DNA of 39,300 bases, taken from Escherichia phage vB_EcoP_F. The position numbers and the translations under genes were made by a program. The stretch lies in sequence record NC_047808.1. One strand, 5' to 3'. The notes beneath the pieces were generated by a model that was given only the letters and a program-made list of their open reading frames with translations, was not told the DNA's origin and made no database searches. Positions 1 through 32,634 of the stretch are shown here, in pieces. Every line of letters begins with the position of its first letter. Position 1 is the stretch's first letter.

Positions 1-581
1 ATAACGCCACGAAGAACAACCGAGCGATGGACGCTGCCCTGTCCACTGTGATCTCTATGGGTCTTGCTGGTATCTACTACATGGCTCAGGCTCATGTCAA
101 GGCTTACGCTATGCAGGATGGTCGAGACCGTGACTACCTCAAGCAAGCTCTAGACCCGACGATGATTGGATATGCAGCTCTATCACGTAGTTCACACCTT
201 GGTGGACCACTTGGGGTAGCTAACATTCTGGGTGGCATCGCTGGGTATGAGGACACTAAGATGCTCCGTTCGTCTATCCTACCTCGTTCGCCTACAGAGA
301 AGCCTGAACGTGCCATCGCGTATGGTGCAGCTACAAGTGACCCTGTGATGAATGTTGTTGGTAACTTCTTGGAGCAGGTTCCAGCTTTCGGATATGCTGC
401 TAACGTTGGCGCTTCGGCTTACAACTTGGCTGGCTACCTCAAGGCTGATACTCGTGTCAACGAGCGTGACTACATGACCGGGATGTATAATACGTTCCGT
501 GAACTGGTTCCGAACGACCCAATTACCCAGAAGCTGTTGCTTGGGATGTTTGAGGAGCAAGGTATCCACATCAAGGACTAA
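1..581 (+). CDS. internal virion (core) protein gp16, C-terminal part; 5' truncated by window start, same gene as 35995..39300
   Basis: Track ORF 27..581 is open in frame back to nt 3; translation (..NATKNNRAMDAALSTVISMGLAG..VPNDPITQKLLLGMFEEQGIHIKD) matches recalled T7 gp16 C-terminus; gene order 15-16-17. Confidence 0.85.
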   Translation, partial: NATKNNRAMDAALSTVISMGLAGIYYMAQAHVKAYAMQDGRDRDYLKQALDPTMIGYAALSRSSHLGGPLGVANILGGIAGYEDTKMLRSSILPRSPTEKPERAIAYGAATSDPVMNVVGNFLEQVPAFGYAANVGASAYNLAGYLKADTRVNERDYMTGMYNTFRELVPNDPITQKLLLGMFEEQGIHIKD

Positions 582-599
582 ACTATCACTATAGGAAAC
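577..599 (+). promoter_or_regulatory. phage RNA polymerase promoter (phi17 position), ACTAAACTATCACTATAGGAAAC, +1 G at 594
   Basis: Matches the 11-copy consensus in this window; CACTATAGG core as in T7 -7..+2; upstream gene's TAA stop lies inside promoter. Confidence 0.75.
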
Positions 600-645
600 T
601 GGAGGCGCTACCATAGGTCTCCGTTTAAATAACAAAGGAGGCATA

Positions 646-3600
646 ATGTCCACGATTACACAATTCCCTTCAGGAAACACTCAGTACAGGATTGAGTTCG
701 ACTACCTAGCCAGAACGTTTGTTGTTGTTACGCTGGTGAATAGCTCTAACCCTACCCTGAACCGTGTACTGGAAGTTGGTCGAGATTACCGATTCCTTAA
801 TCCAACGATGATTGAGATGTTGGTTGACCAATCAGGTTTCGACATCGTTCGTATTCACCGTCAGACTGGAACTGACTTAGTGGTAGACTTCAGGAATGGC
901 TCAGTGTTGACAGCTAGTGACCTGACCAATTCAGAGCTTCAGGCTATCCATATTGCAGAAGAAGGTCGAGACCAAACGGTTGACTTAGCGAAGGAATATG
1001 CCGATGCTGCTGGTAGCTCTGCTGGCAACGCTAAGGATAGCGAGGACGAAGCACGCCGAATCGCTGCGAGTATCAGGGCAGCTGGTCTAATTGGCTATAT
1101 TACCCGTCGCTCCTTCGAGAAAGGCTACAACGTTACAACATGGAGCGAGGTCCTGCTATGGGAAGAGGATGGTGATTATTACCGCTGGGATGGTACGCTT
1201 CCAAAGAACGTTCCTGCTGGTTCAACTCCTGAAACTTCCGGTGGGATTGGATTAGGTGCGTGGGTTAGTGTTGGTGATGCGGCTTTAAGAAGTCAGATTT
1301 CAAACCCGGAAGGGGCAATACTCTACCCTGAATTACATAGAGCACGCTGGCTTGATGAAAAAGATGTTCGTGGTTGGGGTGCTAAAGGGGATGGTGTCAC
1401 TGATGATACAGCAGCGTTAACGAGCGCATTAAACGACACACCGGTTGGACAAAAGATTAATGGCAATGGGAAGACATATAAGGTCACATCCCTGCCTGAC
1501 ATTAGCCGCTTCATCAACACTCGTTTCGTTTATGAGCGCATTCCCGGACAACCTCTTTATTATGCCTCTGAAGAATTTGTTCAGGGTGAGCTGTTCAAAA
1601 TAACGGACACCCCTTATTATAATGCGTGGCCTCAGGATAAAGCGTTCGTATATGAGAATGTGATATATGCACCTTACATGGGTAGCGATCGTCATGGTGT
1701 TAGTCGTCTGCATGTATCATGGGTTAAGTCTGGTGATGATGGTCAAACATGGTCTACTCCAGAGTGGTTAACTGATCTGCATCCAGATTACCCTACAGTG
1801 AACTATCATTGTATGAGTATGGGTGTATGTCGCAACCGTCTGTTTGCCATGATTGAAACACGTACTTTAGCCAAGAACGCATTAACCAATTGTGCATTGT
1901 GGGATCGCCCCATGTCTCGTAGCCTGCATCTTACTGGCGGTATCACTAAAGCTGCAAATCAGCGATATGCAACAATACATGTACCAGACCACGGACTATT
2001 CGTGGGTGATTTTGTTAACTTCTCTAATTCTGCGGTAACAGGTGTATCCGGTGATATGACTGTTGCAACCGTAATAGATAAGGACAACTTCACGGTTCTT
2101 ACACCCAACCAGCAGACTTCAGATTTGAATAACGCTGGAACGAATTGGCACATGGGTACTTCTTTCCATAAGTCTCCATGGCGTAAGACGGATCTTGGTC
2201 TAATCCCTAGTGTCACAGAGGTGCACAGCTTTGCTACTATTGATAACAATGGCTTTGTTATGGGCTATCATCAAGGTGATGTAGCTCCACGAGAAGTTGG
2301 GCTTTTCTACTTCCCTGATGCTTTCAATAGCCCATCTAATTATGTTCGTCGTCGGATACCATCTGAGTATGAACCAGATGCGGCAGAGCCATGCATCAAG
2401 TACTATGACGGTGTATTATACCTTATCACTCGTGGCACTCGTGGGGATAGACTAGGTAGCTCTTTGCACCGTAGTAGAGACATAGGTCAGACTTGGGAGT
2501 CACTGAGATTTCCACATAATGTTCATCATACTACATTACCTTTTGCTAAAGTAGGGGATGACCTTATTATGTTTGGTTCAGAACGTGCAGAAAATGAATG
2601 GGAAGCAGGTGCACCAGATGATCGTTACAAGGCATCTTATCCTCGCACCTTCTATGCACGCTTGAATGTAAACAATTGGAATGCAGATGATATTGAATGG
2701 GTTAACATCACTGACCAGATTTATCAGGGCGGAATAGTTAACTCAGGTGTAGGTGTTGGTTCGGTAGTTGTGAAGGATAATTACATCTACTACATGTTTG
2801 GTGGAGAGGACCATTTTAACCCATGGACATATGGAGATAACTCAGCGAAGGATCCATTCAAAGCAGATGGTCATCCCTCAGATTTGTATTGCTACAAAAT
2901 GAAGATTGGCCCAAGCAATCATGTTTCCCGTGATTTCAGGTATGGTGCTGTACCTAACAGAGCTGTTCCCGTGTTTTTTGATACGAATGGGATTCGCACT
3001 GTTCCTGCGCCAATGGAATTTACAGGGGATTTGGGTTTAGGTCATGTGACCATTAGAGCCAGCACCAGTAGTAACATTCGCTCTGAAGTTTTAATGGAAG
3101 GTGAATATGGGTTTATCGGGAAATCTATACCGACTGATAACCCGGCAGGGCAGCGCATCATATTTTGCGGGGGTGAAGGCACCAGTTCAACGACTGGCGC
3201 ACAGATTACGCTTTATGGTGCAAATAACACCGACTCAAGGCGAATAGTTTACAATGGTGCTGAGCATCTGTTCCAGACTGCTGACGTTAAGCCTTATAAC
3301 GATAACGTCACTGCGCTTGGTGGGCCTAGCAACCGTTTCACCACTGCATACCTCGGAAGTAACCCTATTGTTACTTCTAACGGGGAGAAGAAAACAGAGC
3401 CGGTAGTTTTTGATGATGCTTTCCTGGATGCCTGGGGTGACGTTCGCTACATCATGTACCAGTGGTTAGATGCTGTTCAACTGAAAGGCAATGATGCTCG
3501 TATTCACTTCGGGGTTATTGCACAGCAAATTCGTGATGTATTCATTGCACATGGTCTGATGGATGAAAACAGTACGAATTGTCGTTATGCTGTTCTGTGC

Positions 3601-3840
3601 TATGACAAGTATCAACGGATGACCGATACGGTATTTTCGCACAATGAAATCGTTGAACACACTGACGAGGAGGGTAATGTCACTACTACGGAAGAACCTG
3701 TATACACCGAGGTGGTTATTCACGAAGAGGGTGAGGAGTGGGGTGTTCGGCCTGACGGAATTTTCTTTGCTGAAGCCGCTTATCAGAGAAGAAAACTGGA
3801 AAGAATCGAAGCCAGACTTTCTGCTCTTGAACAGAAGTAA
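646..3840 (+). CDS. tailspike protein gp17 with endosialidase (endo-N-acetylneuraminidase) domain and C-terminal intramolecular chaperone domain
   Basis: 1064 aa; N-terminus like T7 gp17 adaptor (FDYLARTFVVVTL..); Asp-boxes SGDDGQTW (1729..1752) and SRDIGQTW (2473..2496); C-terminus GVIAQQIRD..RRKLERIEARLSALEQK typical of self-cleaving chaperone domain; AGGAGG RBS. Confidence 0.85.
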   Translation: MSTITQFPSGNTQYRIEFDYLARTFVVVTLVNSSNPTLNRVLEVGRDYRFLNPTMIEMLVDQSGFDIVRIHRQTGTDLVVDFRNGSVLTASDLTNSELQAIHIAEEGRDQTVDLAKEYADAAGSSAGNAKDSEDEARRIAASIRAAGLIGYITRRSFEKGYNVTTWSEVLLWEEDGDYYRWDGTLPKNVPAGSTPETSGGIGLGAWVSVGDAALRSQISNPEGAILYPELHRARWLDEKDVRGWGAKGDGVTDDTAALTSALNDTPVGQKINGNGKTYKVTSLPDISRFINTRFVYERIPGQPLYYASEEFVQGELFKITDTPYYNAWPQDKAFVYENVIYAPYMGSDRHGVSRLHVSWVKSGDDGQTWSTPEWLTDLHPDYPTVNYHCMSMGVCRNRLFAMIETRTLAKNALTNCALWDRPMSRSLHLTGGITKAANQRYATIHVPDHGLFVGDFVNFSNSAVTGVSGDMTVATVIDKDNFTVLTPNQQTSDLNNAGTNWHMGTSFHKSPWRKTDLGLIPSVTEVHSFATIDNNGFVMGYHQGDVAPREVGLFYFPDAFNSPSNYVRRRIPSEYEPDAAEPCIKYYDGVLYLITRGTRGDRLGSSLHRSRDIGQTWESLRFPHNVHHTTLPFAKVGDDLIMFGSERAENEWEAGAPDDRYKASYPRTFYARLNVNNWNADDIEWVNITDQIYQGGIVNSGVGVGSVVVKDNYIYYMFGGEDHFNPWTYGDNSAKDPFKADGHPSDLYCYKMKIGPSNHVSRDFRYGAVPNRAVPVFFDTNGIRTVPAPMEFTGDLGLGHVTIRASTSSNIRSEVLMEGEYGFIGKSIPTDNPAGQRIIFCGGEGTSSTTGAQITLYGANNTDSRRIVYNGAEHLFQTADVKPYNDNVTALGGPSNRFTTAYLGSNPIVTSNGEKKTEPVVFDDAFLDAWGDVRYIMYQWLDAVQLKGNDARIHFGVIAQQIRDVFIAHGLMDENSTNCRYAVLCYDKYQRMTDTVFSHNEIVEHTDEEGNVTTTEEPVYTEVVIHEEGEEWGVRPDGIFFAEAAYQRRKLERIEARLSALEQK

Positions 3841-3973
3841 TAAACAAAACCCTTTTGCCATTAAGTTGGTGGGGTAGATGTTAGAAGGTTGTGGAGGTAG
3901 AGGCTAACTACACGCTAACCAACGTAGGTAACAACTTTGGGTCACGGACGACCCGCTTTAAACTGGAGGTTTT

Positions 3974-4168
3974 ATGATTGAGTTAGACTTCAAGAATGAG
4001 GTCCTTAAAGCCTCTCCTATCGTCGGGACCGCTGCGGCTGATGGTGCCAGTCGGTTCTTCTTCGGACTTACACTGAACGAATGGTTCTACGTTGCAGCTA
4101 TCGCGTACACCGTTGTCCAGATTGGTGTGCTAGTCTACAAAACGATTAAAGGAGGTGGTAAAACATGA
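3974..4168 (+). CDS. class II holin gp17.5
   Basis: 64 aa; FFFGLTLNEWFYVAAIAYTVVQIG matches recalled T7 gp17.5; GGAGG RBS; position after tailspike. Confidence 0.8.
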   Translation: MIELDFKNEVLKASPIVGTAAADGASRFFFGLTLNEWFYVAAIAYTVVQIGVLVYKTIKGGGKT

Positions 4169-4428
4169 CGCAGATGGACTTAGAGAAGTTCCTCTTGATG
4201 CTTGATACTGAGCGTGCTCGACTTATGCTTCAAGACTTGCGGGATGACACTAAGCGTTCACCTCAGCTCTACAACGCCATTGAGAAGCTGCTTGCTCGTC
4301 ACAACTTTGTGTTAAGTAAGGTGTCTGTGGACGAGAAGACGCTGGCTGATATGGAGGCCCTGAACGCAGAGTATGATAAGGTGCTTTCAGCGACTGAGGA
4401 TAATGACACAGGGTATGGTGTTCAATAA
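4165..4428 (+). CDS. terminase small subunit gp18
   Basis: 87 aa, size and position as T7 gp18; ATGA overlap with holin stop. Confidence 0.75.
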   Translation: MTQMDLEKFLLMLDTERARLMLQDLRDDTKRSPQLYNAIEKLLARHNFVLSKVSVDEKTLADMEALNAEYDKVLSATEDNDTGYGVQ

Positions 4429-4480
4429 GTGTTAGACTCAAGGTCATTACTATATGTAGTGGCCTTTATGGTTAACACTA
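4429..4480 (+). promoter_or_regulatory. candidate RNase III processing hairpin (R18.5 position) containing motif TAGACTCAAGGTCAT
   Basis: Imperfect inverted repeat GTGTTA..TAACAC enclosing the recurrent motif; intergenic, same relative position as T7 R18.5. Confidence 0.3.
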
Positions 4481-4529
4481 ACTAGTGGAGGCGACTCTAC
4501 GTGAAATCTGATAAACCGGGAGGGCAACT

Positions 4530-6739: not shown

Positions 6740-6781
6740 CTGAATGAATAACTATAGGCGAAAACTGAATTAATAAGCAGT

Positions 6782-6800
6782 TAGTAACCTATGGTTACTA
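6782..6800 (+). promoter_or_regulatory. tight hairpin TAGTAACC-TAT-GGTTACTA (8-bp perfect stem, 3-nt loop)
   Basis: Perfect inverted repeat between terminase stop and phiOR-like promoter; no adjacent U-tract. Confidence 0.25.
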
Positions 6801-6833
6801 CCAGTCTAACCTACTGTTTTACAAGGAGTTTGG

Positions 6834-6856
6834 ACTTAACTATCACTATAGGGAAG
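6834..6856 (+). promoter_or_regulatory. phage RNA polymerase promoter (phiOR position), ACTTAACTATCACTATAGGGAAG
   Basis: Consensus match; located after gene 19 as T7 phiOR. Confidence 0.75.
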
Positions 6857-7517: not shown

Positions 7518-7715
7518 TCTCACAGTTCAAGAACCTCAAGTCTCCCCATAGGCCCTCTTTAAGTCCAGACCAAAGGCCCTACCCAGTCTATCATAAGGCT
7601 GGACCGATGGTCGACGATAGGTCTAGGCTATGGCTGGAGGTCAGGACGATAGGTAGGGACTATTGGTCTGTCTCTGAGTCTCTATCTGTATAGTGATATA
7701 GTATAACATTACGTC
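7518..7715 (+). other. predicted physical genome terminus and terminal-repeat region (single collapsed copy); left end predicted at 7518
   Basis: TCTCACAGTTCAAGAACC..CCCCATAGG at 7518 resembles recalled T7/T3 left-terminal sequence (TCTCACAG..); non-coding; flanked by short-repeat arrays; right boundary not determinable. Confidence 0.3.
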
Positions 7716-7815
7716 CTACACCTACAGTCCTACACCTACAGTCCTACAACCTACAGTCCTACAACCTACAGTCACAACCATAAGACACCAACACCTACAG
7801 TCATAGACCTACAGT
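7716..7815 (+). repeat. array of imperfect short tandem repeats (unit approx CCTACA[A]CCTACAGT, 14-15 bp period)
   Basis: cctacacctacagtcctacacctacagtcctacaacctacagtcctacaacctacagtc.. seen directly; position equals T7 left-end short-repeat array. Confidence 0.5.
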
Positions 7816-7926
7816 TAATAGACACACAGCTATAGACTTAAGGTCAAAGACATGTTAGTCAAAGACTATATCCTCTTACACCATGAGGCCGACGATAGCT
7901 CAATCAATATTATTTCGAATTACCTA

Positions 7927-7956
7927 TTGACTATAGGTCTAGACTATGGCTTAATA
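7927..7956 (+). promoter_or_regulatory. candidate host sigma70 early promoter (A1-like): TTGACT-17 bp-CTTAAT
   Basis: -35 TTGACT at 7927..7932; spacer contains CTAGACTATGG resembling T7 A1 spacer; weak -10. Confidence 0.3.
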
Positions 7957-8067
7957 GCTTCCGTCAACACGACACGGCAACAACCGGATAGTGAAGACGC
8001 CTGGTCATCCCGGTTAAGTAGACAGCCTGATAAGTCATACGAACAACAGGCAGATGACAGAAAGTAG

Positions 8068-8105
8068 TTGACAAGATGTAACGATAAGATGTAAGCTGTA
8101 CCACA
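8068..8105 (+). promoter_or_regulatory. candidate host sigma70 early promoter (A2/A3-like): TTGACA-18 bp-TAAGCT followed by GTACCACAT
   Basis: Consensus -35 TTGACA at 8068..8073; architecture and downstream GTACCACAT resemble recalled T7 A2/A3 promoters. Confidence 0.45.
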
Positions 8106-9726: not shown

Positions 9727-9749
9727 ACTTAACTATCACTATAGGACTC
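9727..9749 (+). promoter_or_regulatory. phage RNA polymerase promoter immediately upstream of the RNA polymerase gene, ACTTAACTATCACTATAGGACTC
   Basis: Full consensus match; +1 G at 9744, 75 nt upstream of gene 1 ATG. Confidence 0.7.
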
Positions 9750-9818: not shown

Positions 9819-12500
9819 ATGAGCGTCATCTCTATTGACAAACACGACTTCTCTGATGTGTCGAACGCCATTGAGCCGTTTAACCTGCTGGCCGACCACT
9901 ACGGGCAAGACCTTGCAGTCAAACAGCTTCAGCTTGAGCATGAGGCATACACTGAAGGCGAGCGACGTTTCATCAAAAACCTTGAGCGACAGACTGAGCG
10001 CGGGGAACTGGCAGACAATCAGGTCGCCAAGCCTTTGATGCAGACTCTGGTCCCTAAGATTGCGCAAGCCGTCAGGGAGTGGCATGAAGGTCCAGACGGG
10101 AAGCTGTCAACCTCTCGTCCTAGCGTAGCGTTCACCATGTTAAGCACTGAAGAGAAGGCCGTCAAGGACCGCTCTCTGCGTATCTCTTGCGAGTCTGCTG
10201 CGGTCATCATACTGAAGGTCATACTCTCCAAGCTGGTCAAGCCTGAAGGGATACCGATTACACCGATGGCCTCCGCGATAGGCCGCACACTTGAGGACGA
10301 AATCCGCTTCGGTCGCATCCGTGACAAAGAGAAAGAGCACTTCAAGAAGGCGATAGCTGATAACCTGAATAAGCGGGCCGGGGCGTCCTACAAGAAAGCC
10401 TACATGCAAGCGGTCGAGGCGTCCATGCTGGAGCAAGGCCAACTGGAAGATGCGTGGGGGACTTGGAGTCCTACAGAGGCTGTCCACGTTGGCATCAAGA
10501 TGCTTGAGATTGTCATCCAGTCAACACAACTGGTCGAGCTTAAGCGGTACGGTGCTGGCAATGCAGCGGCTGACGTAGAGATGGTCCACCTGTCGGACTT
10601 CTGGGTCAAGAAGATGGCACAACGAGGATTCAGCCTTGCGGGTATCGCTCCAGTCTACCAGCCTTGCGTCGTTCCACCTAAGCCGTGGACTGGTGTCGTA
10701 GGTGGTGGGTACTGGGCCAAAGGTCGCAGACCGTTACCATTGATTCGCTTAGGGTCTAAGTCTGCGGTAGCACGTTATGAAGACGTGTACATGCCTGAAG
10801 TCTATGACGCTGTGAACATCATCCAAAATACACCTTGGAAAGTGAACAAGGAGGTATTGGACGTGGTGAACATGGTCGAGAAGCTGAACAACACGCCTAT
10901 TGATGACATCCCTCAGATGGAACCGCTGAAGCCTGAGGACTATGCTGGTGAGACCGAGGAGGAACTCAAGGCATGGAAGAAGGCTGCTGCTGGTATCTAT
11001 CGCCGCGAGAAGGCCAGACAGTCACGCAGATTATCACTGAGCTTTATCGTTAACCAAGCAAACAAGTTCTCTCAGTTCAAGGCCATCTGGTTCCCGTACA
11101 ACATGGATTGGCGAGGTCGTGTCTACGCTGTCCCGATGTTCAACCCTCAGGGTAACGACATGCAGAAGGGTCTCCTGACTCTGGCAGTCGGCAAGCCTAT
11201 TGGTGCTGACGGTTTCAAATGGCTGAAGGTCCACGGTGCAAACTGTGCGGGTGTCGATAAAGTCACCTTCGAGGAGCGCATCAAGTGGGTGGAAGACAAC
11301 CACGAAAACATCATGGCTGCTGCTAAGGCACCGATGGATAGTATTGAGTGGTGGGGCAAGTTAGACTCTCCGTTCTGTTTCCTCGCGTTCTGCTTCGAGT
11401 ATGCTGGCGTAATGCACCACGGCCTGTCTTACTCCTGCTCGCTGCCGATAGCGTTCGATGGGTCCTGCTCTGGTATTCAGCACTTCAGTGCGATGCTTCG
11501 TGACCACATCGGTGGACATGCAGTAAACCTGACGCCATCCGGTAAGGTACAAGACATCTACCGCATTGTGTCTGACCGCATTGAGGAGGAGCTTAAAGTC
11601 CTGCTGATTAACGGTACTGACAACGAGATGGTCACTCACGAGGATAAGAAAACTGGTGAGATTACCGAACGTATCAAGCTGGGGACACGAGAGCTGGCCC
11701 GTCAGTGGCTGACATACGGTATGTCACGCAAGGTCACTAAGCGTTCAGTCATGACTCTGGCATACGGGTCGAAAGAGTACGGCTTCGCAGACCAAGTTTA
11801 CGAGGACATCGTGATGCCAGCGATTGACTCAGGGTCTGGCGCTATGTTCACCGAGCCGAGCCAAGCGTCTCGCTTCATGGCTAAGATGATTTGGGAAGCT
11901 GTGAGCGTGACCGTAGTTGCTGCGGTTGACGCGATGAAGTGGCTTCAGGGTGCTGCCAAGCTGCTGGCTGCTGAAGTGAAGGACAAGAAGACTGGAGAAA
12001 TCCTGAAGCCTTGCCTTCCGGTACACTGGGTAACACCTGATGGTTTCCCGGTCTGGCAGGAATACCGCAAGAAGGATACCACTCGTCTGAATCTGATGTT
12101 CTTAGGGTCATTCAACCTTCAACCTACGGTCAACAAAGGCATGAAGAAAGAGCTGGACAAGCACAAGCAGGAGTCAGGCATTAGCCCGAACTTCGTCCAC
12201 TCACAAGATGGTAGCCACCTACGCAAGACTGTAGTCCACACGCATCGCAAGTATGGCGTGATGTCATTCGCAGTGATTCATGATAGCTTCGGGACCATCC
12301 CGGCTGACGCTGAATATCTGTTCCGTGGTGTCCGTGAGACGATGGTCGAGACCTACCGCGACAACGATGTGCTGCTTGACTTCTACGAGCAGTTTGAATA
12401 CCAGCTTCACGAGAGCCAGCGCGATAAGTTGCCTGAGCTTCCGAAGAAAGGTAAACTGAATATCGAAGACATCTTGTCTTCAGACTTTGCATTCGCTTAA
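9819..12500 (+). CDS. single-subunit DNA-directed RNA polymerase gp1
   Basis: 893 aa vs T7 RNAP 883 aa; conserved motifs e.g. HDSFGT, YGVMSFAVIHDSFGTIP, C-terminal FAFA. Confidence 0.95.
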   Translation: MSVISIDKHDFSDVSNAIEPFNLLADHYGQDLAVKQLQLEHEAYTEGERRFIKNLERQTERGELADNQVAKPLMQTLVPKIAQAVREWHEGPDGKLSTSRPSVAFTMLSTEEKAVKDRSLRISCESAAVIILKVILSKLVKPEGIPITPMASAIGRTLEDEIRFGRIRDKEKEHFKKAIADNLNKRAGASYKKAYMQAVEASMLEQGQLEDAWGTWSPTEAVHVGIKMLEIVIQSTQLVELKRYGAGNAAADVEMVHLSDFWVKKMAQRGFSLAGIAPVYQPCVVPPKPWTGVVGGGYWAKGRRPLPLIRLGSKSAVARYEDVYMPEVYDAVNIIQNTPWKVNKEVLDVVNMVEKLNNTPIDDIPQMEPLKPEDYAGETEEELKAWKKAAAGIYRREKARQSRRLSLSFIVNQANKFSQFKAIWFPYNMDWRGRVYAVPMFNPQGNDMQKGLLTLAVGKPIGADGFKWLKVHGANCAGVDKVTFEERIKWVEDNHENIMAAAKAPMDSIEWWGKLDSPFCFLAFCFEYAGVMHHGLSYSCSLPIAFDGSCSGIQHFSAMLRDHIGGHAVNLTPSGKVQDIYRIVSDRIEEELKVLLINGTDNEMVTHEDKKTGEITERIKLGTRELARQWLTYGMSRKVTKRSVMTLAYGSKEYGFADQVYEDIVMPAIDSGSGAMFTEPSQASRFMAKMIWEAVSVTVVAAVDAMKWLQGAAKLLAAEVKDKKTGEILKPCLPVHWVTPDGFPVWQEYRKKDTTRLNLMFLGSFNLQPTVNKGMKKELDKHKQESGISPNFVHSQDGSHLRKTVVHTHRKYGVMSFAVIHDSFGTIPADAEYLFRGVRETMVETYRDNDVLLDFYEQFEYQLHESQRDKLPELPKKGKLNIEDILSSDFAFA

Positions 12501-12793: not shown

Positions 12794-12816
12794 CCTAAAC
12801 TATCACTATAGGATTA
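12794..12816 (+). promoter_or_regulatory. phage RNA polymerase promoter (phi1.1 position), CCTAAACTATCACTATAGGATTA
   Basis: Consensus match; by analogy with T7 this region may also be the primary replication origin. Confidence 0.75.
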
Positions 12817-14452: not shown

Positions 14453-14475
14453 CCTAAGCTATCACTATAGGACAA
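14453..14475 (+). promoter_or_regulatory. phage RNA polymerase promoter, CCTAAGCTATCACTATAGGACAA
   Basis: Consensus match with one upstream substitution. Confidence 0.7.
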
Positions 14476-15279: not shown

Positions 15280-15438
15280 ATGAGCCTTGAAGAAAAGAAG
15301 TACATCGTGGAGCTTGAGGGACGCGTTCAGTCCTTCGAGGTTCCGTTGTACGCAAAGTCTCTTGAAGAGGCTACCCTGAAGTCCCAAGAGTATGAGGACG
15401 CTGGGTTTGTGGTCGGACGGATTCGTCCTGAGACCTAA
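15280..15438 (+). CDS. gp2-like inhibitor of host RNA polymerase
   Basis: [24 protein letters not shown] matches recalled T7 gp2; start ATG 15280 with GGAAGGAG RBS (track ORF starts 15217). Confidence 0.7.
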
Positions 15439-15456
15439 ACTATCACTGTAGGACAG
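15434..15456 (+). promoter_or_regulatory. phage RNA polymerase promoter variant (phi2.5 position), CCTAAACTATCACTGTAGGACAG (-3 A to G)
   Basis: Consensus match except one core substitution. Confidence 0.55.
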
Positions 15457-16646: not shown

Positions 16647-16870
16647 TGACCCAAGAAGTTAAGGTCGTTCGTCAGCGTCTGACCATTGATAAAATCCCGG
16701 TAGGCTATGCGTTTATCGTCCACGGTAAGCCTGGTGAAGTGTACGTGAAGATTAGTAACTCTCACGTCTTCAACCATAAGTTGCTCCAGATGCACACCAC
16801 GGATGCTAACCGCTTCCAACGTCATCTGAACCTCGTAGCTGTAGAGCTGGTGGTGTATGATGGTGAGTAA
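16646..16870 (+). CDS. hypothetical protein, 74 aa, between gene 3 and 3.5
   Basis: ATG 16646 with AAAGGAG RBS; overlaps both neighbours; no T7 counterpart recalled. Confidence 0.45.
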   Translation: MTQEVKVVRQRLTIDKIPVGYAFIVHGKPGEVYVKISNSHVFNHKLLQMHTTDANRFQRHLNLVAVELVVYDGE

Positions 16871-17318
16871 GGTGCAATTCAACCCACGGTCCCGGACTGA
16901 CGCTATCTTCGTTCACTGTTCGGCTACCAAGCCAGAGATGGACATCGGGGTAGAGACCATCCGTATGTGGCACAAGCAGCAAGGCTGGCTGGATGTAGGC
17001 TACCACTTTATCATCAAGCGTGATGGTACTGTGGAAGAGGGTCGCCCGGTAAATGTCGTAGGGTCACACGTTAAGGATTGGAACTCCCGGTCCGTAGGCG
17101 TCTGCCTTGTAGGGGGAATTGACGCTAAGGGTCAGTTTGAAGCTAACTTCACTCCAGCCCAGATGAACTCCCTGCGCAACAAGCTGGCTGACCTGAAGGT
17201 CCTGTATCCTCAGGCAGAAATAAAAGCACACCATGACGTAGCACCTAAGGCGTGTCCAAGTTTTGACTTGCAACGCTGGCTGTCTACCAATGAACTGGTC
17301 ACTTCCGACCGTGGTTAA
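16857..17318 (+). CDS. N-acetylmuramoyl-L-alanine amidase (T7 lysozyme) gp3.5
   Basis: DAIFVHCSATKP, GYHFIIKRDGTVEEGR, HHDVAPKACPSFDL..NELVTSDRG match recalled T7 gp3.5. Confidence 0.9.
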   Translation: MMVSKVQFNPRSRTDAIFVHCSATKPEMDIGVETIRMWHKQQGWLDVGYHFIIKRDGTVEEGRPVNVVGSHVKDWNSRSVGVCLVGGIDAKGQFEANFTPAQMNSLRNKLADLKVLYPQAEIKAHHDVAPKACPSFDLQRWLSTNELVTSDRG

Positions 17319-17342: not shown

Positions 17343-17558
17343 ATGATTAAACTTATCGAATTTCTTGGTCGTCTGGTGGTGCGTGGTTATCGTCGTGCTG
17401 CGGTACTGGAACGAAAGGTAGAAAAGAAGACTGCGGACGGTGCGGCTGATGCTGCTGCTCTGGCTGACAAGCTGACCATCGCGTCACTGGAAGCTGGCAT
17501 GAAGGCTCGTCAGGCTGATACCAAAGCTGACCAATTGGCTCAGTTCTTCAAAGCCTAA
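17343..17558 (+). CDS. hypothetical protein, 71 aa
   Basis: AGGGAG RBS; predicted helical/basic; identity not established. Confidence 0.5.
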   Translation: MIKLIEFLGRLVVRGYRRAAVLERKVEKKTADGAADAAALADKLTIASLEAGMKARQADTKADQLAQFFKA

Positions 17559-17576
17559 ACTATCACCTTAGGGATG
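17554..17576 (+). promoter_or_regulatory. divergent phage-promoter-like sequence CCTAAACTATCACCTTAGGGATG (two core mismatches)
   Basis: Upstream half identical to consensus; -4/-3 differ. Confidence 0.35.
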
Positions 17577-24137: not shown

Positions 24138-24160
24138 ACTAAACTATCACTATAGGGACT
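24138..24160 (+). promoter_or_regulatory. phage RNA polymerase promoter (phi6.5 position), ACTAAACTATCACTATAGGGACT
   Basis: Full consensus, GGG start (late class). Confidence 0.75.
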
Positions 24161-24221
24161 TTAGGACCTAAGATATGACTATAAGATAGACTTTAGTCTT
24201 AACTTAAAGAGGAGATTCAAG

Positions 24222-24733: not shown

Positions 24734-24737
24734 GACA

Positions 24738-25383: not shown

Positions 25384-25394
25384 GGAGGTGACGA

Positions 25395-26963
25395 ATGGCT
25401 GAACGTGAAGGGTTCGCTGCTGAAGGAGCCAAAGCGGTCTATGACCGACTGAAGAACGGTAGACAGCCATATGAGACACGCGCTCAGAACTGTGCTGCTG
25501 TCACTATCCCGTCACTGTTTCCTAAGGAGTCCGACAACTCGTCTACTGAGTACACAACTCCGTGGCAAGCTGTAGGTGCTCGCTGTTTGAACAACTTGGC
25601 TGCAAAGCTGATGCTGGCATTATTCCCTCAGTCACCGTGGATGCGACTTACAGTCTCCGAATATGAGGCCAAGACCTTGAGTCAGGACTCAGAGGCTGCT
25701 GCTCGTGTTGACGAAGGGCTTGCTATGGTCGAGCGTGTGTTGATGGCCTACATGGAGACTAACAGTTTCCGTGTGCCATTGTTCGAAGCTCTGAAGCAGC
25801 TTATCGTCTCCGGTAACTGTCTGCTTTACATTCCAGAGCCTGAACAGGGTACTTACAGTCCTATGCGAATGTACCGCTTAGTGTCCTACGTTGTTCAACG
25901 TGATGCTTTCGGTAATATCTTGCAGATTGTGACTCTCGACAAGGTAGCGTTTAGTGCTCTACCGGAAGACGTTAAGTCACAACTCAACGCAGACGACTAT
26001 GAGCCTGACACAGAGCTGGAAGTATATACGCACATCTACCGTCAAGACGACGAGTATCTACGTTATGAGGAAGTGGAAGGCATTGAGGTGGCAGGGACCG
26101 AGGGTTCCTACCCACTGACTGCATGTCCATACATCCCGGTACGAATGGTTCGACTGGATGGTGAAGACTATGGTCGTTCTTACTGCGAGGAGTATCTGGG
26201 AGACCTGAACTCGCTGGAGACGATTACAGAAGCTATCACCAAAATGGCTAAGGTAGCCTCCAAGGTGGTGGGCCTCGTTAACCCGAACGGTATCACGCAA
26301 CCTCGTCGTCTGAACAAGGCGGCTACAGGTGAGTTCGTTGCCGGTCGCGTTGAGGACATCAACTTCCTGCAACTGACTAAGGGTCAGGACTTTACGATTG
26401 CCAAGTCGGTGGCTGATGCTATCGAGCAACGTTTAGGCTGGGCCTTCCTTCTTAATAGTGCTGTTCAGCGTAATGCCGAGCGAGTCACTGCTGAAGAGAT
26501 TCGTTATGTTGCTGGCGAACTGGAGGCGACCTTAGGTGGCGTGTACTCAGTACAATCCCAAGAGCTTCAGTTACCTATCGTCCGTGTGCTGATGAACCAA
26601 CTTCAGTCTGCTGGCATGATTCCTGACCTTCCGAAAGAAGCGGTAGAGCCTACTGTCTCCACTGGTCTGGAAGCGTTAGGTCGTGGTCAGGACTTGGAGA
26701 AGCTAACTCAGGCGGTTAACATGATGACTGGTCTTCAGCCGCTATCTCAGGACCCGGACATCAACTTGCCGACCCTTAAGCTACGACTCCTGAACGCTCT
26801 GGGCATCGACACCGCTGGCCTACTCCTGACGCAAGACGAGAAGATTCAGCGCATGGCTGAGCAGTCGTCTCAACAGGCAGTTGTCCAAGGTGCTAGTGCT
26901 GCTGGTGCTAACATGGGTGCTGCTGTAGGTCAGGGAGCTGGTGAGGACATGGCTCAAGCCTAA
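25395..26963 (+). CDS. head-tail connector (portal) protein gp8
   Basis: 522 aa; position and size as T7 gp8; AGGAGG RBS. Confidence 0.9.
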   Translation: MAEREGFAAEGAKAVYDRLKNGRQPYETRAQNCAAVTIPSLFPKESDNSSTEYTTPWQAVGARCLNNLAAKLMLALFPQSPWMRLTVSEYEAKTLSQDSEAAARVDEGLAMVERVLMAYMETNSFRVPLFEALKQLIVSGNCLLYIPEPEQGTYSPMRMYRLVSYVVQRDAFGNILQIVTLDKVAFSALPEDVKSQLNADDYEPDTELEVYTHIYRQDDEYLRYEEVEGIEVAGTEGSYPLTACPYIPVRMVRLDGEDYGRSYCEEYLGDLNSLETITEAITKMAKVASKVVGLVNPNGITQPRRLNKAATGEFVAGRVEDINFLQLTKGQDFTIAKSVADAIEQRLGWAFLLNSAVQRNAERVTAEEIRYVAGELEATLGGVYSVQSQELQLPIVRVLMNQLQSAGMIPDLPKEAVEPTVSTGLEALGRGQDLEKLTQAVNMMTGLQPLSQDPDINLPTLKLRLLNALGIDTAGLLLTQDEKIQRMAEQSSQQAVVQGASAAGANMGAAVGQGAGEDMAQA

Positions 26964-26981
26964 ACTATCACTATAGGAACA
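26959..26981 (+). promoter_or_regulatory. phage RNA polymerase promoter (phi9 position), CCTAAACTATCACTATAGGAACA
   Basis: Consensus match; gene 8 stop TAA inside promoter. Confidence 0.75.
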
Positions 26982-27071
26982 ACACAACTTGAGTGAGTGA
27001 ACGCATAGCCAGCCGTAACGGGAGGGCAGGTTGTTGTGTTTCCTATTAACGACTTAAAGGAGAATGACTTA

Positions 27072-27956: not shown

Positions 27957-27957
27957 G

Positions 27958-27980
27958 ACTAAACTATCACTATAGGGAGA
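27958..27980 (+). promoter_or_regulatory. phage RNA polymerase promoter (phi10 position), ACTAAACTATCACTATAGGGAGA
   Basis: Best consensus copy; GGGAGA initiating region as in T7 phi10. Confidence 0.85.
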
Positions 27981-28082
27981 CCAAGAGATAGACTCAAGGT
28001 TTCCCTATTACTTCAGTCCATACGGATTGGGCATACAGTAAGTAATACACTTTATCTTTCAATTGAATAGGAGAATTATCAT

Positions 28083-29126
28083 ATGGCAAACGTTCCGGGT
28101 CAGAAAATTGGTACAGACCAAGGTAAAGGTGAATCCAGTTCCGACGCGCTGGCGTTGTTCCTGAAGGTCTTTGCTGGTGAAGTCCTGACCGCATTCACTC
28201 GCCGCTCTGTAACCGCTGACAAACATATTGTCCGTACCATTCAGAACGGTAAGTCTGCTCAGTTCCCGGTCATGGGTCGCACCTCTGGTGTGTATCTGGC
28301 TCCAGGTGAGCGACTGTCCGATAAGCGTAAAGGTATTAAACATACCGAGAAAGTGATTACCATTGATGGTCTGCTGACTGCCGATGTGATGATTTTCGAC
28401 ATTGAAGACGCGATGAACCACTATGACGTGGCTGGCGAGTATTCCAACCAGCTAGGTGAAGCTCTGGCTATCGCTGCCGATGGTGCGGTTTTAGCTGAAA
28501 TGGCTATCCTGTGCAACCTCCCGGCTGCATCCAACGAGAACATCGCTGGTCTGGGTACTGCGTCCGTCCTGCAAGTTGGTAAGAAAGCTGACCTCGACAC
28601 CCCGGCTAAACTGGGCGAAGCAATCATCGGTCAACTGACCATTGCTCGTGCGAAGCTGACCTCCAACTACGTTCCTGCTGGCGACCGTTACTTCTACACC
28701 ACGCCGGACAACTACTCTGCAATCCTCGCGGCTCTGATGCCTAACGCTGCTAACTATGCTGCGCTGATTGACCCAGAGACTGGTAACATCCGTAACGTGA
28801 TGGGCTTCGTTGTTGTTGAAGTTCCTCATCTGGCACAGGGTGGTGCTGGTGAGACTCGTGGTGAAGATGGTATCTCTATCTCTTCTGGTCAGAAACACGC
28901 ATTCCCGGCGGCTGCTACTGGAGACGTTAAAGTTGCTATGGACAACGTTGTTGGTCTGTTCTCTCACCGTTCTGCTGTGGGTACTGTGAAGCTGCGTGAC
29001 TTGGCGCTGGAACGTGACCGTGACGTAGATGCTCAGGGCGACCTGATTGTTGGTAAATACGCTATGGGTCACGGTGGTCTGCGTCCTGAAGCGGCTGGCG
29101 CACTGGTTTTCAGCCCAGCGGCGTAG
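28083..29126 (+). CDS. major capsid protein gp10A
   Basis: 347 aa; extensive identity to recalled T7 gp10A (KSAQFPVMGRT, IKHTEKVITIDGLLTADV, YAMGHGGLRPEAAG). Confidence 0.95.
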   Translation: MANVPGQKIGTDQGKGESSSDALALFLKVFAGEVLTAFTRRSVTADKHIVRTIQNGKSAQFPVMGRTSGVYLAPGERLSDKRKGIKHTEKVITIDGLLTADVMIFDIEDAMNHYDVAGEYSNQLGEALAIAADGAVLAEMAILCNLPAASNENIAGLGTASVLQVGKKADLDTPAKLGEAIIGQLTIARAKLTSNYVPAGDRYFYTTPDNYSAILAALMPNAANYAALIDPETGNIRNVMGFVVVEVPHLAQGGAGETRGEDGISISSGQKHAFPAAATGDVKVAMDNVVGLFSHRSAVGTVKLRDLALERDRDVDAQGDLIVGKYAMGHGGLRPEAAGALVFSPAA

Positions 29127-29256
29127 CACCTTTAGCCAACCTAACGTCGCTACAGTAGCGGCTGCACCTGAAGAGGAGACTCTAACTCCTCAACAGAAAG
29201 CTGCGCGTACTCGTGCTGCGAACAGGGCCGCTAAACTGGCTGAGACCAACAACTAA
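29110..29256 (+). other. 10B-like capsid C-terminal extension ORF in the +1 frame relative to 10A (frameshift-dependent)
   Basis: +1 frame open 29047..29256 encodes ..NVATVAAAPEEETLTPQQKAARTRAANRAAKLAETNN, resembling recalled T7 10B tail; slippery GGTTTTC at 29105..29111. Confidence 0.5.
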
Positions 29257-29262
29257 TTGAAA

Positions 29263-29299
29263 CCCCTTGGGTGCCTTCGGGTGCCTGAGGGGTTTTTTT
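29263..29299 (+). terminator. intrinsic terminator (Tphi position): CCCCTTGGGTGCC-UUCG-GGTGCCTGAGGGG + T7
   Basis: 13-bp stem (with G-U pairs), UUCG tetraloop, seven T residues; directly after capsid gene. Confidence 0.8.
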
Positions 29300-29318
29300 G
29301 CTTAAAGTGAGGATGATT

Positions 29319-29408
29319 ATGTTTTACTTACTTACAGCCTTGGGACTATTTGTTAGTTTCTGGGCGATTATATTATTAACCGGACCATGCAGTCCTTACG
29401 ACAGATAG
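29319..29408 (+). CDS. hypothetical small hydrophobic peptide, 29 aa, between terminator and gene 11
   Basis: GAGG RBS; MFYLLTALGLFVSFWAIILLTGPCSPYDR; low certainty. Confidence 0.3.
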   Translation: MFYLLTALGLFVSFWAIILLTGPCSPYDR

Positions 29409-29416
29409 GAGGGAGT

Positions 29417-29983
29417 ATGGCTCAATACATTCCACTGAATGCTAACGATGACTTAGACGCTATCAACGATATGTTAGCTGCTATCGGTGAACCGGCAGTC
29501 CTACAGCTTGACGAGGGGAACGCTGACGTCTCGAACGCCCAACGTATCCTGCATCGTGTCAATCGTCAGGTCCAAGCTAAAGGCTGGAACTTTAACATCA
29601 ATGAAGCTGCTGTCCTGACACCTGATGTCCAAGACAATAGGATTCGATTCTTGCCGTCATACCTTCGTGTAATGACCGCTGGGGCCACCAGCTACTACAG
29701 CAACATGGGTGGATACCTGTACGACCTGTCCACTCAGTCGACCACTTTCACCGACCCTATCACGGTAGAGCTTGTGGAGATGAAGCCATTCTCCGAGATG
29801 CCTGTGGTCTTCAGGGACTACATCGTCACTAAAGCTAGCCGTGAGTTCAACGCTAAGTTCTTCGGTAGCCCAGAGTCTGAACTGTACCTTCGTGAGCAGG
29901 AAGCAGAACTCTATCAGCAGGTCATGGAATACGAGATGGATACTGGTCGCTACAACATGATGTCTGACATCGGGAGAGACTAA
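29417..29983 (+). CDS. tail tubular protein A gp11
   Basis: Start ATG 29417 (GGAGGGAG RBS); AAIGEP, KGWNFNINE, FRDYIVTKASREFNAKFFG, MEYEMD match recalled T7 gp11. Confidence 0.9.
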   Translation: MAQYIPLNANDDLDAINDMLAAIGEPAVLQLDEGNADVSNAQRILHRVNRQVQAKGWNFNINEAAVLTPDVQDNRIRFLPSYLRVMTAGATSYYSNMGGYLYDLSTQSTTFTDPITVELVEMKPFSEMPVVFRDYIVTKASREFNAKFFGSPESELYLREQEAELYQQVMEYEMDTGRYNMMSDIGRD

Positions 29984-30210
29984 TGTCTAGTCACAACCTG
30001 AAGATTCGCCGCCAGCACTTTGGTCCGGTACAGCTAGGTCTAAAGACAGCAGAGCTGAGACTTAACGACCGGGACTTTAAGGTTGGAGATTGGCTTATCC
30101 TGAATGAGTGGGACAACGGGTATACTGGACAACAGGTAGCGCGTAAGGTTGTCCACATTGCTGACGTTGGTGACATCGCTGAAGGATACGTCCTAATGAG
30201 TATAATTTAA
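29983..30210 (+). CDS. small ASCH/PUA-like (DUF3850-like) protein inserted between tail tubular genes
   Basis: 75 aa; pattern LKI..QHFGPVQLGLKTAELRLNDRDFKVGDWLIL resembles DUF3850/ASCH family by motif; ATGA coupling to gene 11. Confidence 0.45.
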   Translation: MSSHNLKIRRQHFGPVQLGLKTAELRLNDRDFKVGDWLILNEWDNGYTGQQVARKVVHIADVGDIAEGYVLMSII

Positions 30211-30219
30211 GGAGGGCCT

Positions 30220-32577
30220 ATGCCACTAATTACTCAATCAATCAAGAACCTTAAAGGTGGCATTAGCCAACAGCCTGATATACTGAGGTTCTCAGACCAA
30301 GGCGAGGCACAGGTTAACTGCTGGTCATCCGAGAGTGATGGCCTCCAGAAGCGCCCACCTACAGTCTTCAAGCGACGTCTTAACATCGACGTTGGGAGCA
30401 ACCCTAAGTTCCACCTGATTAACCGTGACGAGCATGAGCAGTATTACATCGTGTTCAATGGGTCCAACATTCAGGTAGTTGACTTGAGTGGTAATCAATA
30501 CTCAGTGTCAGGTGCGGTAGACTACGTTAAGTCCTCCAACCCACGAGATGACATCCGTGTCGTTACCGTGGCAGACTATACGTTCGTCGTTAACCGTAAG
30601 GTTGTCGTCAAAGGTGGAAGCGAGAAGTCACACTCTGGTTATAACCGCAAAGCACGAGCTTTAATTAACCTGCGTGGTGGACAGTATGGTCGAACCCTTA
30701 AGGTGGGAATCAACGGTGGCGTTAAGGTCTCGCATAAGCTACCAGCAGGTAATGATGCCGAGAATGACCCGCCTAAGGTGGACGCTCAAGCCATTGGTGC
30801 AGCTCTGAGAGACCTTCTTGTTACTGCCTACCCTACCTTCACGTTTGACCTTGGGTCTGGATTCCTGCTAATCACAGCTCCTTCAGGGACCGATATTAAC
30901 TCAGTGGAGACGGAGGATGGCTACGCTAACCAGCTAATAAGCCCAGTCCTAGACACTGTGCAGACAATCTCTAAACTACCTCTTGCCGCTCCTAATGGGT
31001 ATATCATTAAGATTCAAGGTGAGACAAACAGTAGCGCCGATGAATACTACGTGATGTATGACTCCAACACTAAGACGTGGAAGGAGACAGTGGAGCCGGG
31101 AGTTGTCACTGGGTTCGATGTCACCACAATGCCACATGCTCTGGTAAGACAGTCTGACGGCTCCTTTGAGTTCAAGACTCTGGATTGGTCCAAGCGTGGT
31201 TCTGGTAACGATGACACAAACCCTATGCCTAGCTTCGTGGATGCTGCGATTAATGATGTGTTCTTCTACAGGAACAGACTTGGGTTCTTGTCGGGTGAGA
31301 ACGTAATCATGAGCCGTTCAGCCAGCTACTTTTCGTTCTTCCCTAAGAGTGTGGCGACACTGAGTGATGATGACCCTATTGATGTAGCTGTAAGTCACCC
31401 TCGAATCTCAATCCTTAAGTATGCCGTTCCGTTTAGCGAGCAGCTACTACTTTGGTCGGATGAGGTTCAGTTCGTGATGACAAGCTCTGGGGTCCTTACC
31501 TCGAAGTCTATCCAGCTTGATGTAGGCTCAGAGTTTGCCTTAGGCGACAATGCCAGACCGTTCGCTGTAGGACGCTCAGTCTTCTTCTCAGCTCCTCGTG
31601 GGTCATTCACCAGCATTAAGCGATACTTCGCTGTAGCTGATGTGTCTGATGTGAAGGATGCTGATGATACAACCGGTCACGTATTGTCCTACATCCCTAA
31701 CGGGGTGTTTGATATTCAAGGTACAGGGACTGAGAACTACATCTGCGTCAACTCTACAGGTGCATACAACCGTATCTACATCTACAAGTTCTTGTTTAAG
31801 GACGGCGTACAGCTTCAAGCCTCTTGGTCACACTGGGAGTTCCCTAAAGATGATAAGATTCTGGCGTCTGCTTCTATTGGCTCTACCATGTTCATCGTTC
31901 GTCAGCATCAAGGAGGGGTAGACATTGAGCACCTTAAGTTCATCAAGGAGGCAACTGACTTCCCGTCAGAGCCATATAGACTACACATTGACTCCAAGGT
32001 GTCTATGGTAATTCCAATTGGCTCATATAATGCTGACACCTATAAGACTACGGTTGACATTGGTGCTGCTTATGGTGGCAACGCTCCGTCTCCCGGTCGG
32101 TACTATCTGATTGACAGTCAGGGTGCTTATGTGGACCTTGGGGACTTGACCAGTATCTCTACTGTGATTACCCTCAACGGCGATTGGTCAGGACGTACAG
32201 TGTTCATCGGACGGCCCTATCTGATGTCCTACAAGTTCTCACGGTTCCTGATTAAGATTGAAGATGATAGGGGCACTCAGTCTGAAGACACTGGTCGTCT
32301 ACAGCTTCGTCGGGCCTGGGTCAACTACAAGGACACTGGCGCTCTGAGACTCATTGTCAGAAACGGTGAGCGAGAGTTCGTTAACACCTTTAATGGGTAC
32401 ACCCTTGGTCAGCAAACCATAGGGACTACTAACATTGGTGACGGGCAGTATCGCTTCGCTATGAATGGTAACGCATTAACCACGAGTCTAACCTTAGAGT
32501 CCGACTATCCTACCCCAGTGTCCATCGTTGGGTGTGGCTGGGAGGCATCATACGCTAAGAAAGCTCGTTCAGTCTAA
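30220..32577 (+). CDS. tail tubular protein B gp12
   Basis: 785 aa; position and size as T7 gp12; AGGAGGG RBS. Confidence 0.9.
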   Translation: MPLITQSIKNLKGGISQQPDILRFSDQGEAQVNCWSSESDGLQKRPPTVFKRRLNIDVGSNPKFHLINRDEHEQYYIVFNGSNIQVVDLSGNQYSVSGAVDYVKSSNPRDDIRVVTVADYTFVVNRKVVVKGGSEKSHSGYNRKARALINLRGGQYGRTLKVGINGGVKVSHKLPAGNDAENDPPKVDAQAIGAALRDLLVTAYPTFTFDLGSGFLLITAPSGTDINSVETEDGYANQLISPVLDTVQTISKLPLAAPNGYIIKIQGETNSSADEYYVMYDSNTKTWKETVEPGVVTGFDVTTMPHALVRQSDGSFEFKTLDWSKRGSGNDDTNPMPSFVDAAINDVFFYRNRLGFLSGENVIMSRSASYFSFFPKSVATLSDDDPIDVAVSHPRISILKYAVPFSEQLLLWSDEVQFVMTSSGVLTSKSIQLDVGSEFALGDNARPFAVGRSVFFSAPRGSFTSIKRYFAVADVSDVKDADDTTGHVLSYIPNGVFDIQGTGTENYICVNSTGAYNRIYIYKFLFKDGVQLQASWSHWEFPKDDKILASASIGSTMFIVRQHQGGVDIEHLKFIKEATDFPSEPYRLHIDSKVSMVIPIGSYNADTYKTTVDIGAAYGGNAPSPGRYYLIDSQGAYVDLGDLTSISTVITLNGDWSGRTVFIGRPYLMSYKFSRFLIKIEDDRGTQSEDTGRLQLRRAWVNYKDTGALRLIVRNGEREFVNTFNGYTLGQQTIGTTNIGDGQYRFAMNGNALTTSLTLESDYPTPVSIVGCGWEASYAKKARSV

Positions 32578-32584
32578 CTTATTG

Positions 32585-32634
32585 AAGGGCCTATAGATTT
32601 ACCTTAACTATCACTATAGGGACTATAGGCCCTT
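32585..32634 (+). promoter_or_regulatory. perfect 12-bp inverted repeat (AAGGGCCTATAG / CTATAGGCCCTT) enclosing the phi13 promoter; candidate RNase III site R13
   Basis: Arms at 32585..32596 and 32623..32634 seen directly. Confidence 0.4.
32602..32624 (+). promoter_or_regulatory. phage RNA polymerase promoter (phi13 position), CCTTAACTATCACTATAGGGACT
   Basis: Consensus match, GGG start. Confidence 0.75.

Follow-up and report, generated by a model that had tools for sequence, protein, structure and literature searches.

Eleven K1F-type promoters in the genome of Escherichia phage vB_EcoP_F

The genome of Escherichia phage vB_EcoP_F (NC_047808.1; 39,300 nucleotides, analysed at its full length and called the window below) codes for a T7-type single-subunit RNA polymerase and carries a short sequence that recurs at eleven places on one strand. 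This raises the question of whether these copies are the promoters of that polymerase and, if so, whether their specificity is that of T7 or another one. A preliminary description had taken them for an 11-member phage promoter family with a specificity of its own. The observation is real and was, with small corrections, correctly interpreted, and it is already known: these are ordinary K1F-type promoters. We hold with high confidence that the eleven sites form the complete promoter set for the phage's own T7-type RNA polymerase, of the K1F specificity class. What was established here are the sequences of the sites, where they lie, which orthologues they have and the loop of the polymerase; initiation at the +1 G and orthogonality were demonstrated by others on near-identical parts, and what we infer is how active, and how strong relative to one another, the single sites are in this phage.

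Eleven sites and their placement

The sites were sought as CTAAACTATCACTATAGG with up to three mismatches on both strands of the window, and in 100 shuffles of it. There are eleven matches, all on the + strand, against a mean of 0.06 in the shuffles, none of which (0/100) reaches 11; five match the pattern exactly, five have one mismatch and one has two. They coincide with the family listed in the preliminary description, whose coordinates (577, 6834 and so on) are correct: each lies one base left of the match start because it gives position -17 of a promoter 23 bp long, and its end coordinate, 32624, is +6 of the last site (Table 1). The whole-genome weight-matrix scan that it had named as a check also separates the sites cleanly from everything else: with a matrix built over -17..+4 and run along both strands of the window, the eleven score between 30.5 and 36.7 bits, the best other position (24167) reaches 14.7 bits and the maximum on the - strand is 5.3. 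All eleven sites agree at positions -16, -15, -13, -11 to -5 and -2 to +2, and the core consensus over -16..+2 is CT(A/T)AACTATCACTATAGG. The information content of the set is about 36 bits, when about 12.8 bits would suffice to single out eleven sites in 2 x 39.3 kb.

The placement of the sites is that of promoters. All eleven start points fall in non-coding sequence, which makes up 9% of the genome (chance about 3e-12); all eleven sites are co-directional with the genes, and each start point lies 32-185 bp upstream of the next start codon, most of these start codons having a clear Shine-Dalgarno sequence. Ten of the sites occupy junctions at which T7 also has a promoter (1.1, 1.6, 2.5, 3.8/4, 6.5, 9, 10, 13, 17 and OR), and the eleventh stands just upstream of the polymerase gene. 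Several promoters had been said to embed the TAA stop of the upstream gene at -15..-13, which is true of four (577, 15434, 17554 and 26959).

What such a site does is known from a close relative. The purified RNA polymerase of the phage Ro45lw initiates at the +1 G from a minimal promoter, ACTTAACTATCACTATAGGGA, as mapped by deep sequencing of 5' ends (PMC12272871), and this 21-mer is exactly the sequence of window positions 6834-6854. For another Kayfunavirus, a genome note of 2026 lists eight copies of the 18-mer CTWAACTATCACTATAGG as putative promoters (PMC13298934); the window has exactly eight exact matches to this consensus, plus three variants.

Table 1. Promoter sites and associated features of the window. 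Gene names are taken from the K1F record AM084414; match start refers to the search with CTAAACTATCACTATAGG.
Feature	Position	Strand	+1	Match start	Sequence	Score (bits)	Remarks	Orthologous sites
phi17	577..599	+	594 (G)	578	ACTAAACTATCACTATAGGAAAC	36.5	TAA stop of gene 16 at -15..-13; predicted to drive gene 17	K1F 32592; named phi17 in Ro45lw record
phiOR-like	6834..6856	+	6851	6835	ACTTAACTATCACTATAGGGAAG	34.9	after terminase gene 19; ~670 bp before terminal repeat	K1F 38847
gene 1 site	9727..9749	+	9744	9728	ACTTAACTATCACTATAGGACTC	34.0	75 nt before gene 1 ATG	K1F 2474; Ro45lw 2400; SAKp10309 6943; CR8 3356 (annotated predicted promoter)
phi1.15 / phi1.1-like	12794..12816	+	12811	12795	CCTAAACTATCACTATAGGATTA	34.2	first promoter past gene 1	K1F 5552; Ro45lw 5483 (annotated predicted promoter)
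phi1.6	14453..14475	+	14470	14454	CCTAAGCTATCACTATAGGACAA	32.5	G at -12; after ligase gene	K1F 7182 and Ro45lw 7178 (annotated phi1.6), both with G-12
phi2.5	15434..15456	+	15451	15435	CCTAAACTATCACTGTAGGACAG	32.7	-3 A>G (CACTGTAGG); gene 2 TAA at -15..-13; predicted to drive single-stranded DNA-binding protein gene 2.5	identical variant in K1F 8497, Ro45lw 8018 (annotated phi2.5), SAKp10309 13157
phi4 / phi3.8-like	17554..17576	+	17571	17555	CCTAAACTATCACCTTAGGGATG	30.5	-4 T>C and -3 A>T (CACCTTAGG); gene 3.7 TAA at -15..-13; upstream of primase/helicase gene	K1F 10863 and SAKp10309 15281, same core; Ro45lw has CACCTAAGG
phi6.5	24138..24160	+	24155	24139	ACTAAACTATCACTATAGGGACT	36.2	first late promoter	K1F 17172; Ro45lw 16775, overlapping annotated phi6.5 (16774-16796)
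degenerate promoter-like copy	24167..24187	+			CCTAAGATATGACTATAAGAT	14.7	29 bp downstream of phi6.5; mismatches at -12, -11, -7, +2	K1F 17201; Ro45lw 16804; SAKp10309 21393
phi9	26959..26981	+	26976	26960	CCTAAACTATCACTATAGGAACA	36.7	portal gene 8 TAA at -15..-13	K1F 19993
phi10	27958..27980	+	27975	27959	ACTAAACTATCACTATAGGGAGA	36.2	predicted to drive major capsid gene; only site with T7 class III GGGAGA at +1..+6	K1F 20992; Ro45lw 20967 (annotated promoter)
phi13	32602..32624	+	32619	32603	CCTTAACTATCACTATAGGGACT	35.1		K1F 25316
endosialidase tailspike gene 17	646..3840	+
gene 1, T7-type single-subunit RNA polymerase	9819..12500	+					893 aa; 1280 bits to T7 RNA polymerase, end-to-end
gene 3.5, amidase/lysozyme homologue	16857..17318	+					by annotation; K1F gp3.5 is 'putative lysozyme/RNA polymerase inhibitor'
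T-phi-like intrinsic terminator	29259..29299	+					17-bp GC-rich hairpin, then seven T; after capsid gene 10

Variant sites and their orthologues

The core (-16..+2) departs from the consensus in three sites, all of them among the five middle-gene sites (phi1.6, phi2.5 and phi4), and the six late sites keep it. The preliminary description had pointed out two of these, at 15434 and 17554, as carrying core substitutions that may leave them weak or inactive; the substitutions are real (-3 A>G in the first; -4 T>C and -3 A>T in the second), and of the two outcomes inactivity is less likely than weakness. It had not flagged the third variant, at 14453 (-12 A>G).

The same eleven sites are present at the same junctions in K1F: ten cores are identical, phiOR differs at +3 and phi4 at -17, and K1F shares the three variants as well as the degenerate copy after phi6.5. 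Between the promoters of the two phages there is thus essentially no difference; the phages themselves differ by scattered, mostly synonymous substitutions, and the window is circularly permuted. SAKp10309 has 11 sites, close versions of those in the window. Ro45lw has 12, the twelfth being upstream of its DNA polymerase gene (12445); its gene 1 promoter has the core CACTAAAGG and its phi4 the core CACCTAAGG, and its GenBank record names phi1.6, phi2.5, phi6.5 and phi17. A wider sample came from IMG/VR: at least 118 fragments selected by the exact 15-mer AACTATCACTATAGG, and hence biased to exact matches. The phi2.5 and phi4 variants, which this query cannot itself match, recur in these fragments as bystander sites, and the exact 21-mer of phi2.5 was found at least 12 times among the fetched loci.

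These orthologues bear on the alternative which survives best, namely that only the consensus sites are promoters and that the copies at 15434 and/or 17554 are inactive relics. That reading, which we consider unlikely, can draw on their scores, the lowest or near-lowest of the set (32.7 and 30.5 bits), on the position of the substitutions within the -4..-1 melting region and on signs of drift: the phi4 core is CACCTTAGG in the window, K1F and SAKp10309 as against CACCTAAGG in Ro45lw, and the G at -3 of phi2.5 is present in only about half of the distinct orthologues among the matches listed. However, the binding region (-16 to -5) is intact in both sites, as is the GG at +1/+2, and the variants stand at the same junctions in K1F, SAKp10309, Ro45lw (where one is slightly altered) and many IMG/VR contigs in which they are unselected bystanders. 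Moreover, they precede the essential genes 2.5 and 4, at which T7 has active class II promoters that are themselves sub-consensus (CACTAAAGG and CACTATTAGG). Because the variants have been retained across the genus, tuned weakness is favoured over inactivity, and phi2.5 and phi4 would more likely be weak by design.

Another matter is the degenerate promoter-like copy that follows phi6.5 at a distance of 29 bp. Given its mismatches at -7 and +2, it is probably inactive. The possibility that it is part of a strong processing hairpin was dropped, since the RNA fold of the region downstream of phi6.5, like those downstream of the gene 1 site and of phiOR, is no better than that of shuffles.

The polymerase and its recognition code

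The gene 1 product aligns with T7 RNA polymerase over its entire length, with the motifs around D537, K631, Y639 and D812 (T7 numbering) conserved, and is 99.0% identical to K1F gp1 and 94.3% to the Ro45lw enzyme. Its specificity hairpin, corresponding to T7 residues 744-761, is TTRLNLMFLGSFNLQPTV, identical to that of K1F and distinguished from that of T7 by Q744T, Q754S, R756N and I761V; the hairpins of Ro45lw and SAKp10309 differ from it only by M750L. The contact positions 746/748/756/758 are R/N/N/Q in the window, K1F and Ro45lw. In T7 RNA polymerase R756 contacts -9, Q758 contacts -8 and N748 contacts -10/-11 (PMC5937735). Aligned with the T7 promoters, those of the window differ at -9, -10, -11, -12 and -14 to -17, and share T-8, C-7 and A-13. 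The pattern on the two sides matches: -8 and -7 are unchanged where Q758 and R746 are kept, and -9 has changed along with R756N. The preliminary description had put the difference from T7 at -8 to -13; this holds for -9 to -12, but T-8 and A-13 are those of T7, and the difference extends to -14 to -17.

The hexamer at -12..-7 is ACTATC (-11..-7 CTATC in all eleven sites, A-12 in ten), and the K1F sites are identical here; we take it to be the hexamer of the engineered PK1F promoter. The text of PMC3458549 does not print the sequence of that promoter; it reports that when residues 744-761 of T7 RNA polymerase are replaced by the K1F-subfamily loop, and -12..-7 of the promoter by the subfamily consensus, the two form an active pair, orthogonal to the T7, T3 and N4-type pairs. 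The orthogonal pair was reused later (PMC4299498). With four hairpin residues differing from T7 and the K1F loop graft orthogonal to it (PMC3458549), the distinct specificity that had been suggested for this polymerase is supported, and, judged from the sequences, it would arise mainly from the hairpin changes, matched by ACTA in place of CGAC at -12..-9.

The same evidence makes it very improbable that the sites are promoters of a polymerase with essentially T7-like specificity and that their upstream differences are neutral drift. N748, R746 and Q758 are indeed unchanged, and -8, -7 and -6..+2 are those of T7; yet within the family -9 to -12 hardly vary, if at all, and each differs from T7, R756, the contact of -9, is replaced by N, changes within -9..-7 of the T7 promoter cut its activity below 5% (PMC5937735), and T7 RNA polymerase with the K1F loop grafted in is orthogonal to the promoter of T7 (PMC3458549).

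A further observation on the polymerase concerns residues ~96-120, where there is an 11-residue insertion relative to T7 just past the N-terminal AT-rich recognition loop. Changes in this loop of the R96L, K98S type parallel the different promoter bases at -17..-14.

Taken with the T7 precedent, the eleven sites suggest the following course of events. Host RNA polymerase would transcribe the early region and gene 1, by analogy with T7. The resulting gp1 would bind duplex DNA from -17 to -5, with -11..-7 read in the major groove by its specificity hairpin and -17..-13 by its N-terminal AT-rich recognition loop; it would then melt TATA at -4..-1 and start at the first G of GG(G/A). This would yield nested rightward transcripts, which the terminator after gene 10 would stop in part. 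The hairpin of that terminator has a folding free energy of -28 kcal/mol (z = -4.8; 0/200 shuffles equally stable), and a terminator is at the same place in T7 (T-phi) and is annotated in Ro45lw. The gene 3.5 product would, if it acts as in T7, inhibit the phage polymerase and favour the late promoters.

It is scarcely credible that the repeats are dispersed cis elements of some other kind, such as targets of recombination or of a homing endonuclease, origins of replication, signals for packaging or sites of RNA processing, even if dispersed repeats of 18-23 bp could in principle fill such roles, some T7 promoters double as replication origins and the inverted repeat at phi13 (see below) looks like an RNA processing hairpin. 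Their core CACTATAGG is common to experimentally mapped T7 promoters, the exact sequence is transcribed in vitro by a 94%-identical polymerase (PMC12272871), such an element would not be expected to keep strictly to one strand, to stand ahead of gene clusters and to co-vary with the polymerase loop, and an Rfam scan of the whole window gave no family above threshold.

Several points do weigh against taking the eleven sites as the full set of K1F-class promoters. In the literature consulted we found neither mapped start sites nor in vitro data for this phage or K1F itself, and no in vivo start-site study of K1F, so that function is transferred from the 94%-identical polymerase and the loop grafts. 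The variant sites at 14453, 15434 and 17554 are predicted promoters only. Positions -10 and -11 differ from T7, yet N748 has stayed the same; hence the three key residues alone do not account for the whole change in specificity. The contrast in conservation between cores and flanks is weak: in the orthologue alignments core identity is 0.95-1.00 and that of the flanks 0.87-0.98, but the relatives are close (~90-95% identical overall) and most loci were picked by the exact 15-mer. Finally, the late sites do not share a single 23-bp sequence, so a sharp split into class II and class III is not evident from the sequence.

Genome context and comparison with known systems

The window represents a linear T7-like Kayfunavirus genome in circularly permuted form. 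The left end of K1F maps to window position 7518, and the terminal repeat, located from the homologous repeats of K1F (178 bp) and Ro45lw (190 bp), spans ~7518-7682, with one copy in the window. The heptamer TATCTGT stands at the right edge of the repeat in all three (window 7683, K1F 179, Ro45lw 190); it presumably resembles the class II pause signal that T7 has at its concatemer junction, which is reached by phiOR transcripts. Just to the right of the repeat, six copies of CCTACAGT form a loose tandem array (7715-7815), comparable to the short repeat arrays annotated beside the terminal repeat of Citrobacter phage CR8. Gene 16, coding for internal virion protein D, is split by the permutation into 35995-39300 and 1-581. 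Relative to K1F gene 16, one T is missing exactly at the 39300|1 junction and the halves are out of frame; the missing T is probably an assembly or linearisation artefact, and the frame break explains the 184-aa 'hypothetical protein' annotated at 27-581 in Escherichia phage vB_EcoP_FFK3 (ON548433, genus Kayfunavirus).

The window and FFK3, both of 39,300 bp, are colinear and 98.8% identical, with 486 substitutions and no indels. No substitution (0) lies within -17..+6 of any promoter; 366 are in annotated genes, 273 of them at third codon positions. The block from 22 to 28 kb is nearly identical to ON548433, with 1 difference in 6 kb, and this uneven distribution suggests recombination between close relatives or differently derived sequence.

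Consensus scans of the window for sigma-70 promoters and terminators showed no enrichment over shuffles, and only the T-phi-like hairpin stood out. There are nonetheless two good sigma-70-like promoters, TTGACT-18-TTAATA (7927-7956) and TTGACA-18-TAAGCT (8068-8097), both passed over by the scan owing to its spacer and match rules, which we take to resemble the T7 early promoters A1 and A2/A3. The first lies inside the 'alpha,alpha-trehalase' open reading frame 7852-8067 (K1F gene 0.1), whose last base falls within the second; for this reason the reading frame may be spurious.

At phi13, the promoter is flanked by the arms of a perfect inverted repeat of 12 bp, AAGGGCCTATAG / CTATAGGCCCTT (32585-32596 and 32623-32634, that is, -34..-23 and +5..+16). 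The hairpin can form only in read-through RNA from upstream (fold z = -2.4), and its 3' arm is also found in K1F, Ro45lw and SAKp10309. By analogy with R13 of T7 it may be an RNase III site.

What the promoter set adds to existing knowledge is mostly annotation. Promoters of the K1F class have served since 2012 in an orthogonal promoter/polymerase pair (PMC3458549), biochemical verification for a 94%-identical enzyme followed in 2025 (PMC12272871), the 18-mer consensus has been published for another Kayfunavirus (PMC13298934), and in GenBank the Ro45lw and CR8 entries already have promoter features at these junctions. The FFK3 record lists no promoters and the FFK3 paper makes no mention of them; the eleven coordinates, the terminator and the permutation point would complete the transcription map of that phage. 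Otherwise the biology adds nothing new, the gene 1 site being its only mildly interesting feature.

A well-studied system for comparison is that of the T7 class II/III promoters (TAATACGACTCACTATAGGGAGA). The window shares with it the 23-bp architecture, the -8..+2 block TCACTATAGG and the strand logic, as well as ten gene junctions, a T-phi-like terminator behind the capsid gene and, in the middle region, sites that fall short of the consensus; the confinement of core departures to the middle genes is an arrangement like that of class II versus class III in T7. The two differ at -12..-9, where the window has ACTA (A-12 C-11 T-10 A-9) and T7 CGAC; at -17..-14, with (A/C)CT(A/T) in the window and TAAT in T7; and in the number of sites, 11 versus 17. 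Furthermore, the six late promoters of T7 are identical over 23 bp, whereas the six late sites of the window differ at -17, -14 and +3..+6.

A last difference concerns gene 1. T7 and T3 are without a phage promoter between gene 0.7 and gene 1 and have phiOL near the left end instead; in the K1F group there is no matrix match between the left end and gene 1 except the site 75 nt before the ATG, and the window has no phiOL. The gene 1 site could then make gene 1 an 'autogene', its direct positive feedback replacing phiOL, with phi1.6, phi2.5 and phi4 deliberately weak and setting the dosage of the middle genes, a proposal on which we are evenly divided. If it is true, the early-to-middle switch of the K1F group is wired differently from that of T7; it would, even so, be no more than a variant of what is known from T7, and the gene 1 site is already a predicted promoter in the CR8 record.

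CR8, a Caroctavirus, provides the other comparison. Its 11 annotated predicted promoters, AAGGAAGGTACACTATAGG, are at the same junctions, one directly upstream of gene 1, and share the -6..+2 core; the -17..-7 block differs, with AGGTA at -12..-8. Its specificity loop, TRIKLMFMG-VQYRPT, has K at 748, a one-residue deletion and R at 758. In an alignment of the 11 promoters of the window with the 17 mapped in T7 and the 11 annotated in CR8, C-7 and A-6 are invariant, and C-5, T-4, A-3, A-1, G+1 and G+2 are at least 90% conserved. CR8, the more distant relative, stands for a sister specificity class, distinct from that of the window, and offers a small control for the co-variation of loop and promoter block.

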